DNA of 32,000 nt from an uncultured Lentisphaeraceae bacterium (GTDB lineage: Bacteria; Verrucomicrobiota; Kiritimatiellia; RFP12; UBA1067), in assembly GCA_964579865.1 (NCBI GenBank), contig CAZOIS010000031.1, positions 5,535 to 37,534 of the forward strand, in the 5' to 3' direction. The position numbers and the translations under genes were made by a program. The notes under the pieces are model-generated. The model saw only the letters and a list, made by a program, of their open reading frames with translations. It did not search any database and had not been told where the DNA came from. Below are positions 29,168 to 30,535 of the stretch, one piece after another. How positions within the stretch are numbered: the first letter of the stretch is position 1; each line of letters starts with the position of its first letter.

Positions 29168-29803
29168 ATGAGCGGACAGAACGATGACGTGAAGAACGAG
29201 GCCGGGACCTGCGGGCCGGGGTGCAGCTGCAATTGCGGGACTCAGGCCGGGCGCGGCAAAAAAGTCAAGTGGCTGGTTTTCGGGGCCGTGATGCTGGCCG
29301 CGTGCGCGGTGGTCGCGGAGCGGGCCTCCGGGCAGAAGGCGGAGGCCCCCAAGCAGACGGGGTTCGCGCTGCCTGCGGTGGGCGTTTCCGCCGCTGCCCC
29401 GGCTGCTGCGGCGGAGCCGGCGGGGTGGGTGTCGCTGAAAAAGGGACTGGCCGAGCTGAACGTGGTGGCCACGAACACGGAGGCCGTTTTCGTGGTGATC
29501 CCTTCTGACGACGCCGCGCGCACGGCTACAATTCAGAAGGAAGTCTCGGCGGCCGTCGCGACCATCGAGGAGCGCGGCACCGAGACAGGCATGTTCGTTC
29601 TCGCGAAAGAGGCCGAGGACTACAAGGCTGTTGCTCAGCAGCTCGGCGCGCCTTCGGTCCTTGCGATGGTCAAGGGCCGCGGCATGGGCGCCGTGGCCGA
29701 CAAAGAGGTTTCCAAGGACGCGCTTCTCAAGGCGTTTGTCTCCGCGTCGCGTCCCCGGTCGGGCTGCGGTGCGGGCGGGTGCGGACCGCGGGGCTGCAAA
29801 TAA
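29168..29803 (+). CDS. Hypothetical single-pass membrane protein with Cys-rich N- and C-termini and a CxxC-less thioredoxin-like domain
   Basis: 211 aa. The N-terminus is GTCGPGCSCNCG, followed by the TM helix WLVFGAVMLAACAVVA. The domain follows a beta-alpha-beta pattern (AVFVVIPSDDAA..., MFVLAKEAEDYKAVAQQLGAPSVLAMV) in which the CxxC position reads PSDD. The C-terminus is SGCGAGGCGPRGCK. Shine-Dalgarno AAGGGGAA. Confidence 0.6.
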   Translation: MSGQNDDVKNEAGTCGPGCSCNCGTQAGRGKKVKWLVFGAVMLAACAVVAERASGQKAEAPKQTGFALPAVGVSAAAPAAAAEPAGWVSLKKGLAELNVVATNTEAVFVVIPSDDAARTATIQKEVSAAVATIEERGTETGMFVLAKEAEDYKAVAQQLGAPSVLAMVKGRGMGAVADKEVSKDALLKAFVSASRPRSGCGAGGCGPRGCK

Positions 29804-29815
29804 GGAACGTGCCGT

Positions 29816-30535
29816 ATGGAATGGTTCCGGTCTTTGTTGACGAGCGCGAGCGCCGCGTTTGATCAGGCAGGCGTCGGTTTCGCGGCCATCCCGCTCGCCT
29901 TCGCGCTCGGGCTCCTGAGCGCGGTGGTGAGCGCCTGCTGCACGCTGCCGGTGCTGGGCATCATCGTGGGGTATGCGGGAGCCCGCAACGACAACAGCCT
30001 GAGGGCGCGGCTGATGTCGGCGGGCTCCTTCTTCCTGGGCGCGGTGCTGTCGCTGGTGATCCTGGGAGCGGTGGCCGCGCTGGTCGGGCAGGTGGCGCAG
30101 GGCTCGCTGGGTCGTTACTGGAAGGTGTTCGCGGGCTTCGCGGCCATCGTGCTGGGGCTGGGCGCGTTGAATCTGCTGCCGTTCAAGCTGCCGCAACGGA
30201 AGGCCAAGTTCGGCGTGAAGACGCGGTCCGGCGGGGTTCTCGGGGCCTTGCTGTTCGGAATCGTGGGCGGCGGGGCTGTGAGCGTGAGTTCTCTGGCCTG
30301 CAACCCGGGCATCTTCATCATCATCGGCGCGGCGGTGCTGCAGGGGGTCACGCTCTGGATGGCGGGTGTCCTGGTGGCCTACGCGTGCGGGTTCGCGCTG
30401 CCCCTCGGGGCGCTGATGCTGGGCGTGTCGTTCGGCGCGGCGGCAGTCAAGTTTAAGGGCTTGGAGTCGGCCGTGAGAGGGCTTGCCGGCGTGCTGCTGG
30501 TGGTCGCTGGCTTCTATTTTCTGTGGACGTTCTGA
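29816..30535 (+). CDS. DsbD/CcdA-superfamily membrane protein with a vicinal CC motif (DsbD_2-like)
   Basis: 239 aa with about six TM helices. The first helix LLSAVVSACCTLPVLGIIVG aligns with the CcdA SPCxLPxLP motif but carries CC. A second cysteine lies in SSLACNPGIFIIIG. Confidence 0.7.
   Translation: MEWFRSLLTSASAAFDQAGVGFAAIPLAFALGLLSAVVSACCTLPVLGIIVGYAGARNDNSLRARLMSAGSFFLGAVLSLVILGAVAALVGQVAQGSLGRYWKVFAGFAAIVLGLGALNLLPFKLPQRKAKFGVKTRSGGVLGALLFGIVGGGAVSVSSLACNPGIFIIIGAAVLQGVTLWMAGVLVAYACGFALPLGALMLGVSFGAAAVKFKGLESAVRGLAGVLLVVAGFYFLWTF

Follow-up and report, generated by a model that had tools for sequence, protein, structure and literature searches.

A conserved cysteine-rich, CcdA-like gene pair of arsenic islands, some of which also carry hgcAB

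The cysteines in transmembrane (TM) helices 1 and 4 of CcdA alternately face the two sides of the membrane. The relay encoded by mer operons is built from a periplasmic carrier, a vicinal cysteine pair in a TM helix, a cytoplasmic cysteine site and a cytosolic acceptor, and its membrane proteins have two to four TM helices. As(III) prefers three thiolate ligands, and S3 complexes are found in ArsD (C12, C13 and C18), ArsA (C113, C172 and C422) and ArsR; ArsP is said to use a vicinal TM cysteine pair for trivalent arsenicals. The two open reading frames (ORFs) described here, ORF1 and ORF2, form a gene pair that resembles each of these systems in some respects and departs from each in others. 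The pair lies in a stretch of 32,000 nucleotides (the window; contig CAZOIS010000031.1, positions 5,535 to 37,534, assembly GCA_964579865.1) from an uncultured Lentisphaeraceae bacterium, within one + strand gene string that runs from ~23.9 kb to the window end. The arsA gene is immediately 5' of ORF1, arsC is immediately 3' of ORF2, and hgcAB is located 3 kb upstream of the pair.

Genes encoding CcdA and thioredoxins in ars operons were noted in 2010, their function untested ('CcdA, thioredoxin, redox-active disulfide protein 2'; PMC2963123). The occurrence of ars genes around hgcAB, especially in Kiritimatiellae, is also known already (PMC7438021; PMC11984097; bioRxiv 10.1101/2022.10.17.512643), and in one lake ~65% of the abundance of hgcA genes was due to Kiritimatiellae (PMC11984097). 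ORF1 and ORF2 are unmentioned in these last three papers, and a literature search (hgcA with CcdA and arsenic; ars operons with cytochrome c biogenesis; ArsD fusions) returned no description of the pair. A preliminary description of the window, made from the sequence alone, had not recognised ORF1-ORF2 as a described system; this agrees with the searches, which turned up neither a Pfam or NCBIfam model nor a name or paper for the cysteine-rich, CxxC-less pair.

ORF1-ORF2 is a real, conserved and widespread uncharacterised module of arsenic islands. Most likely, it is an accessory module of islands controlled by ArsR, which in some lineages contain hgcAB as well. An ORF1 alignment scanned against one genome per species gave 54 loci, mostly in PVC (Planctomycetes-Verrucomicrobia-Chlamydiae) bacteria: the taxa are Verrucomicrobiota, Lentisphaerota, Kiritimatiellia, Phycisphaerae/Planctomycetota, Chlamydiota and Omnitrophota, along with a few Desulfobacterota and one Sumerlaeota. 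ORF2 directly follows ORF1 wherever the contig goes on, with the exception of a single lineage (loci L001 and L002). When the window proteins and a few neighbours were placed on these loci by tblastn, ArsR was nearly always encoded upstream of the pair and Acr3 was nearly always present. Of the loci, 15 have complete flanks of 10 kb; all of these have ArsR, 14 have Acr3, and 13 have an ArsM-like gene or hgcAB. An Armatimonadota locus has the same ars neighbourhood around the pair. The ars context is present in all of the ~55 loci, which span several phyla, and mer genes were seen in none. The company of metal genes to which the preliminary description had drawn attention in the window is found in many other loci too.

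Other neighbours are more variable, and include the LMWP-type ArsC, an ArsM-like methyltransferase and an AhpD-like CxxC protein, whose gene is directly 5' of ORF1 in 17 loci. There is also an ATPase system of one of two kinds. The first, ArsD-ArsA, is present in 16 loci; in L024 and L045, the pair sits between arsD and arsA. In ~24 loci, the pair has beside it the genes for a cysteine-rich protein of 50-60 amino acids and for a P-type (P1B) ATPase of ~630 amino acids that has a CPC motif and lacks an HMA domain (e.g. L003:9562-11633 and L001:187-2319). This couple appears to be an alternative to ArsD-ArsA. The N-terminus of the small protein is amphipathic and its motif is CGPGCGC or CC..CCC; the L001 form shares a CGPGCxC motif with the N-terminal tail of ORF1. 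A canonical thioredoxin and CcdA pair is located within 10 kb of ORF1-ORF2 in ~20 loci. In the Armatimonadota island, the gene 3' of ORF2 (L059:5851-6618) encodes a protein of 255 amino acids that matches no Pfam model, starts like a signal peptide and has a CSGGGCGAGGCG tail at its C-terminus; it may be another periplasmic cysteine-tail protein of the same system.

ORF1 consists of a cysteine cluster, a single TM helix, a globular domain and a second cysteine cluster (Table 1). Four K/R residues separate the first cluster from the helix, an Ala/Pro-rich linker follows the helix, and the protein ends in CGAGGCGPRGCK. AlphaFold2 models residues 87-194 with a pLDDT (predicted local distance difference test score) >90 and the order b-a-b-a-b-a-b-b-a, and the best 50 Foldseek matches of this domain in the PDB are all of the thioredoxin or protein disulfide isomerase (PDI) type, including 3iv4, PDI b' domains and thioredoxins (E ~1e-4, target TM-score 0.6-0.7). 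The loop between b2 (106-111) and a2 (116-135), at the site of the thioredoxin CxxC, reads PSDD and contains no cysteine. P162, right before b4 (163-168), is invariant in an alignment of 28 homologues and occupies what is the cis-Pro position by sequence and model order only. Alignments of homologues show no conserved cysteine inside the fold anywhere in the family.

The cysteines of the two tails, by comparison, are retained. C15, C23, C200 and C205 are invariant in the 28-homologue alignment, and C21 and C210 nearly so. At least three cysteines occur within the 40 residues before the TM helix in 188 of 207 ORF1 homologues; within the last 25 residues, there are at least three in 221 of 236 and exactly three in 198. 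These motifs, like those of ORF2, are conserved far beyond chance. The ORF1 profile collects 577 clusters at 50% identity, 436 of them at E <= 1e-10. Of 124 close homologues, most are nameless, and those with names are nearly all 'hypothetical protein'. ORF1 itself has no Pfam match even at E = 10, and its only NCBIfam match, PurT, is far below threshold; the profile gave only spurious low-complexity matches among PDB sequences, and tblastn found no match on PLSDB plasmids. Two possible origins were considered and rejected. ORF1 did not arise by recent duplication of the canonical membrane thioredoxin found in these islands (hhalign probability 5%), and its domain is not ArsD-like (8% for the family against ArsD, with no ArsD match for the window ORF1).

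ORF2 is a CcdA of divergent sequence, with a third cysteine in addition to the two redox cysteines, both of which are retained. In profile alignment, hhalign places the ORF2 family on the canonical CcdA of the same islands with a probability of 97.3% (E 2.4e-11, 221 columns), C162 aligns with C149 of the canonical protein, and CTLP falls on the CHLA of canonical SPCHLASIP, making C42 the canonical TM1 cysteine and placing C41 where the canonical proline would be. The canonical motif SPCxLP, with proline before cysteine, is accordingly SACCTLP in ORF2, and the vicinal C41-C42 lie within TM1 with a proline at +3. C42, C162, N163, P164 and G165 do not vary in the family, and C41 occurs in at least 90% of its members; CC is found in 112 of 120 homologues and CxPG in 118. 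Selenocysteine at the CC motif, considered as a cause of partial tblastn matches, was rejected, since CC is read at every locus. The model of ORF2 has six TM helices, with low-confidence kinks in TM1 at C42 and in TM4 at C162, and a Foldseek search with it gave nothing meaningful (E >= 0.17). Loops 1, 3 and 5, predicted to be cytoplasmic, contain 12 K and R residues, against 3 in the periplasmic segments, which suggests an N-out/C-out orientation as in CcdA.

ORF2 has more than 873 homologues, in Kiritimatiellia, Verrucomicrobiota, Lentisphaerota and Armatimonadota. Most are nameless, and the named ones are mostly 'cytochrome c biogenesis protein CcdA'. PF02683 is matched by 15 of 33 relatives (best 2.6e-12) and PF13386 by 4. 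The window copy is matched by neither, nor by any other Pfam model at E <= 10, and NCBIfam gave only TsoB and MIGRI, far below threshold; the family profile has no match among PDB sequences. The two genes and the anatomy reported for them in the preliminary description (cysteine clusters, TM helix, PSDD in place of CxxC, SACCTLPVLG) are as described there. Its thioredoxin-like fold for ORF1 is borne out by the model and the Foldseek matches, and the likeness it saw to the membrane-thioredoxin and CcdA pair elsewhere in the window (module 1) is real. Its proposal that redox chemistry has been replaced by metal-ligand chemistry is shown for the lost CxxC of ORF1 but not for ORF2, which keeps C42 and C162; because both canonical CcdA cysteines are present, a redox function remains compatible with the sequence.

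Natural fusions provide a further view of ORF1. Sixteen of the 150 best ORF1-family representatives (among them P0268, P0303, P0307, P0308, P0313, P0323, P0327 and P0330) are ArsD::ORF1 fusions, with phmmer values of 1e-22 to 1e-42. In these, a complete N-terminal ArsD domain with the site MCCSSGVCG is followed by the CGPGCxC cluster, the TM helix, the linker, the fold and the three-cysteine tail. One such fusion is uninterrupted in the complete chromosome of a Chthoniobacteraceae metagenome-assembled genome (CP170506.1; L056:9593-10600), and another occurs in an operon ordered arsR-arsC-arsA-arsD::ORF1-ORF2-acr3 (L058, 3059-4033). A single cluster of in-frame HgcB::ORF1 fusions, of 331 amino acids, was found in two samples (L001:3782-4777 and L002:209-1204), with a P-type ATPase and arsR upstream of hgcA. 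These fusions tie the N-terminal tail of ORF1 functionally to proteins that bind As(III) or Hg via cysteines. Since the fused N-terminal ArsD and HgcB are cytoplasmic proteins, and given the K/R residues before the TM helix, the N-terminal tail is predicted to be cytoplasmic and the fold and C-terminal tail periplasmic, in keeping with the earlier prediction of cysteine clusters on both membrane faces.

The link to hgcAB is recurrent but not obligatory, and the pair is not specific to hgcAB. These genes are located within 10 kb of the pair in ~15 of the 55 loci, directly adjacent to it (up- or downstream) in 10 of the 15, and the linked copies are spread over at least 8 branches of the ORF2 tree. 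When the window HgcA was scanned against metagenome contigs, its closest relatives (91% identity; L060-L062) were found in the arrangement arsR-hgcA-hgcB-arsC-acr3, which lacks arsD, arsA, ORF1 and ORF2. A further relative, L071, also lacks this block, and three others (L064, L065 and L067) have the full layout of the window. Close HgcA relatives therefore have either the whole arsD-arsA-ORF1-ORF2 block or none of it: the pair is dispensable for hgcAB, and its gain or loss accompanies that of arsD-arsA. The preliminary description had set the pair beside hgcAB; the first link is to ars genes, and the mercury link is weaker than was supposed. In L042 (10652-10889 and 13898-14593), two short pieces of ORF2 come after ORF1, then hgcAB and, 3 kb further, an intact ORF2, as if hgcAB had inserted into or next to ORF2 with a duplication.

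The pair most likely acts as a thiolate relay for As(III), and possibly for Hg(II) or methylmercury (MeHg), across the inner membrane, a tentative model whose chances are put at slightly below even. From the anatomy, conservation, homology, gene context and fusions of the pair, we infer metal binding, docking and transport as follows. Three cysteines are found at each of three stations: the cytoplasmic ORF1 tail, the membrane centre of ORF2 and the periplasmic ORF1 tail. ORF1 would be anchored in the inner membrane with one of its tails in the cytoplasm, and its flexible linker would take the thioredoxin-fold domain and the second tail into the periplasm. ORF2 would place C41, C42 and C162 at the membrane centre, the site of the alternately exposed redox pair of CcdA, where a third cysteine could create an S3 site. 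The thioredoxin-fold domain might dock onto ORF2 as CcdA partners do, presenting its tail, and successive ligand exchanges could then move As(III) from one ORF1 tail to the membrane site and on to the other tail. Such a relay would connect the periplasm with cytosolic cysteine-rich carriers, namely ArsD and, where present, the tail of HgcB; where hgcAB is attached, Hg(II) or MeHg may follow the same path.

DsbD has been assigned to the LysE superfamily, which transports amino acids and metals and is rich in metal transporters, and mercury resistance is listed among the roles of the DsbD family (Tsu and Saier, PMC4608589); a metal-moving member is accordingly plausible. As for the direction of transfer, there is a slight lean towards an outward hand-off from ArsD-type chaperones, because the pair is inherited alongside ATP-driven efflux modules and ORF1 occurs fused to the chaperone that supplies exporters. 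An inward, MerT-like transfer is possible by analogy; it would feed ArsM or HgcAB, and MerT/MerP would be its precedent. The preliminary description had suggested a transmembrane thiol relay or uptake device. A relay best explains the ArsD::ORF1 and HgcB::ORF1 fusions, but uptake is not singled out, as either direction is compatible. A broader proposal is that the CcdA scaffold has become a conduit for soft metal(loid)s that, in PVC bacteria carrying hgcAB (Kiritimatiellia, Lentisphaerota and Verrucomicrobiota), brings Hg(II) to HgcB/HgcA or lets MeHg exit; this is unlikely.

Several points weigh against a thiolate relay. The two canonical redox cysteines retained by ORF2 would be compatible with plain electron transfer. 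With Acr3 and an ATPase already encoded in these operons, there is no obvious need for another route for As(III). Transfer inwards to ArsD-ArsA-Acr3 would be futile, and a passive thiol relay has no evident source of energy for export. The closest HgcA relatives do without the pair, and in the HgcB::ORF1 lineage the gene after ORF1 is acr3 rather than ORF2. Additionally, the structure model of ORF2 is of low confidence (mean pLDDT 58.7, from an 18-sequence alignment).

The main alternative is that ORF2 still functions as a CcdA. Electrons from a cytoplasmic donor, either thioredoxin or the AhpD-like CxxC protein encoded nearby, would reach the ORF1 tail in the periplasm; once reduced, this tail would be a periplasmic metallochaperone or thiol buffer beside the efflux systems, and no metal would pass through ORF2. 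Both canonical cysteines and the homology over 221 columns are consistent with this, as are the thioredoxin fold of ORF1, shared with CcdA partners, and the AhpD-like gene immediately 5' of ORF1 in 17 loci. The canonical thioredoxin and CcdA genes of ~20 of the same islands suggest that periplasmic reducing power matters there, and a redox role for CcdA and thioredoxin genes of ars operons has been proposed (PMC2963123). However, this model leaves unexplained the conserved cytoplasmic three-cysteine tail, the ArsD and HgcB fusions and the near-invariant extra C41 in place of the canonical proline. The CxxC of the ORF1 fold is gone, stoichiometric sequestration is a weak resistance strategy, and many of the islands already have a canonical pair; on balance, electron delivery to the ORF1 tail seems rather unlikely, if by no means negligible. 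It is very improbable indeed that ORF2 is an ordinary CcdA for cytochrome c maturation or periplasmic disulfide reduction, present in the island by chance with a degenerate partner. The names given to its homologues and the weak PF02683 matches of its relatives would fit, but the ars context in all ~55 loci across several phyla, a partner that lacks CxxC, the ArsD and HgcB fusions and the presence of a separate canonical pair do not, and the window ORF2 has no Pfam match even at E = 10.

A different emphasis would make the pair a device dedicated to HgcAB, taking up Hg(II) or exporting MeHg in the manner of MerP/MerT. The HgcB::ORF1 fusion exists, and of the 15 loci linked to hgcAB, 10 have it directly beside the pair; the gene order varies, and at least 8 ORF2 lineages are involved. 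HgcA and HgcB also have cysteine-rich tails (bioRxiv 10.1101/2022.07.06.499078). Against this, ~40 of the 55 loci have the pair without hgcAB, L060-L062 and L071 have hgcAB without the pair, and the pair goes with arsD-arsA; the three-cysteine sites, the ArsD fusions and the CVC-type ArsR all point to As(III). The vicinal CC followed by proline in a TM helix recalls MerT and MerF, a likeness also drawn in the preliminary description. The motif itself, with proline at +3 in TM1, is there, but it is an analogy only, as ORF2 has six TM helices and no hidden Markov model (HMM) similarity to any Mer transporter. A dedicated HgcAB device is thus considered improbable.

The hand-over of As(III) or Hg(II) across the inner membrane to cytosolic cysteine-rich proteins is an unexplained step in mercury-methylating anaerobes, and the pair is the most constant uncharacterised part of the hgcAB-associated ars islands, whose hypothetical genes have not been explained in the literature. 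If it carries metal(loid)s, it would represent a new transport principle in arsenic resistance, in which a CcdA scaffold is combined with an S3 site, and a concrete candidate for Hg(II) or MeHg trafficking. If it carries electrons, it would be a dedicated periplasmic thiol-maintenance arm of arsenic resistance. The conduit proposal, if true, would describe the first case of a DsbD-family protein that moves a metal(loid) rather than electrons, and would provide the transport step that is still missing from mercury methylation in freshwater hgcA carriers, some of the most abundant among them.

The features of the pair, of the gene string around it and of module 1 are collected in Table 1. Cysteine-rich tails occur on nearly all proteins of the string, including HgcA, HgcB, the AhpD-like protein and ArsD, and the CVC motif of the window ArsR is of the As(III) type.

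Table 1. Coordinates of ORF1, ORF2 and neighbouring features in the window.
Feature	Position	Strand	Basis or remark
ORF1, bitopic membrane protein of 211 amino acids	29168-29803	+	ORF list; no Pfam or NCBIfam match
ORF1 N-terminal cysteine cluster CGPGCSCNC (C15-C23)	29210-29236	+	Predicted cytoplasmic
ORF1 single TM helix, residues 35-50, type II anchor	29270-29317	+	Model helix 31-53; hydrophobic stretch WLVFGAVMLAACAVVA
ORF1 thioredoxin-fold domain, residues 87-194	29426-29749	+	AlphaFold2 and Foldseek
ORF1 C-terminal cysteine cluster CGAGGCGPRGC (C200, C205, C210)	29765-29797	+	Predicted periplasmic
ORF2, six-TM CcdA/DsbD-superfamily protein of 239 amino acids	29816-30535	+	ORF list; hhalign to canonical CcdA
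ORF2 TM1 motif SACCTLPVLG (C41, C42)	29930-29959	+	C42 = canonical CcdA cysteine
ORF2 TM4 motif SLACNPG (C162)	30290-30310	+	C162 = second canonical CcdA cysteine
S-adenosylmethionine methyltransferase	23885-24745	+	Start of gene string
arsR with ELCVC motif	24762-25160	+	Pfam HTH_5, 3.2e-14; heads the string of the pair
hgcA, N-terminal CCCGTC	25164-26222	+	NCBIfam HgcA_corrinoid, 410 bits
hgcB, cysteine-rich C-terminal tail CCGGEQACCC	26264-26578	+	Sequence
AhpD/CMD-like CxxC protein, CC...CC C-terminal tail	26583-26849	+	Pfam CMD 1.9e-13; NCBIfam ahpD_dom
arsD, C-terminus CCC...CC	26923-27348	+	Pfam ArsD 2.6e-43
arsA	27362-29143	+	Pfam ArsA_ATPase 1e-89
arsC, LMWP type	30605-31039	+	Pfam LMWPc 1.1e-19
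Rhodanese, lipoprotein-like N-terminus	31036-31443	+	Pfam Rhodanese 2.7e-12
acr3, cut by window end	from ~31440	+	tblastn
Module 1 arsR, CVC motif	14929-15231		Second ArsR-headed module
Module 1 arsP (PF03773)	15336-16634		
Module 1 Thioredoxin_3/ArsE	17169-17399		
Module 1 DGC-domain protein	17460-17843		
Module 1 membrane thioredoxin, CIPC	17862-18446		Pfam Thioredoxin 7.6e-11
Module 1 canonical CcdA, SPCHLASIP	18461-19162		Pfam DsbD_TM 3.7e-12

The N-terminus of the window HgcA reads MGGACCCGTCGP (25164-25200), in which all of these positions are cysteines and there is no in-frame TGA; a cysteine-packed N-terminal extension of HgcA has been reported as the CU/CC motif by Haft and Gwadz (bioRxiv 10.1101/2022.07.06.499078). 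The rhodanese begins with MKIAVMILVASVLGIGGCG, a lipoprotein-like N-terminus that makes it probably extracytoplasmic, and L004 and L067 likewise have it between arsC and acr3. It might conceivably act in thio-arsenic chemistry. Module 1 additionally encodes a 23S-rRNA-IVP four-helix protein, after arsP and before Thioredoxin_3/ArsE, and is followed by a truncated Y2-transposase-like ORF (19176-19586). Three long + strand ORFs of the window (5785-7947, 8102-9187 and 9232-10926) have no Pfam match. Opposite each of them runs a long ORF on the other strand, a kind of overlap that is common in high-GC DNA, so either strand may be the coding one. The stretches 1-5708, 11819-15143 and 20991-23459 contain housekeeping genes, encoding an RNase II/R C-terminus, a BamB-like PQQ propeller, tripartite ATP-independent periplasmic (TRAP) transporter components (DctP, a fused DctQM and a separate DctQ) and Usp, as well as a large MscS-type channel and a DNA methylase-like ORF on the - strand.

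Among described systems, MerT/MerP (with MerF and MerC) is closest to the pair in logic: a periplasmic thiol carrier, vicinal TM cysteines, a cytoplasmic cysteine site and a cytosolic cysteine-rich acceptor would be encoded in a metal-responsive operon. There is, however, no sequence relationship (no Mer HMM match at E <= 10). ORF2 has the six TM helices of its CcdA ancestry, the carrier is a membrane-tethered thioredoxin fold rather than a soluble ferredoxin-like HMA domain, the sites have three cysteines, the neighbours are ars genes, and import by the pair is not established. The ArsD-ArsA-ArsB/Acr3 system, the nearest in terms of partners, handles As(III) via three-cysteine sites, as is proposed for the pair, and is linked to it by the ArsD::ORF1 fusions and by inheritance with arsD-arsA; unlike that system, part of the pair is periplasmic, ORF1 is not an ArsD homologue and ORF2 is unrelated to ArsB or Acr3. 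ArsP (PF03773) is also a membrane protein of ars operons, and the vicinal TM cysteine pair that it is said to use is a precedent for export based on CC. Its fold and family are unrelated, with approximately eight TM helices, and it is partnered by ArsE, a small thioredoxin-like protein that has CxxC.

By descent, the closest system is CcdA/DsbD (PF02683, TC 5.A.1) with its ResA/CcmG-type partners. ORF2 shares with it the six TM helices, the N-out orientation and the cysteines in TM1 and TM4, and a membrane-anchored thioredoxin-fold partner, ORF1, is encoded directly 5'. In ORF2, however, SPC has become ACC, TM4 reads ACNPG, and the window copy has diverged below Pfam detection, while ORF1 lacks CxxC, bears three-cysteine tails at both ends (the N-terminal one predicted to be cytoplasmic) and does not resemble the canonical partner at the profile level. 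The context of the pair is ars and hgc rather than cytochrome maturation. The CcdA and thioredoxin determinants noted in ars operons (PMC2963123) correspond to module 1 of the window, and not to the cysteine-rich, CxxC-less variant that ORF1 and ORF2 represent.

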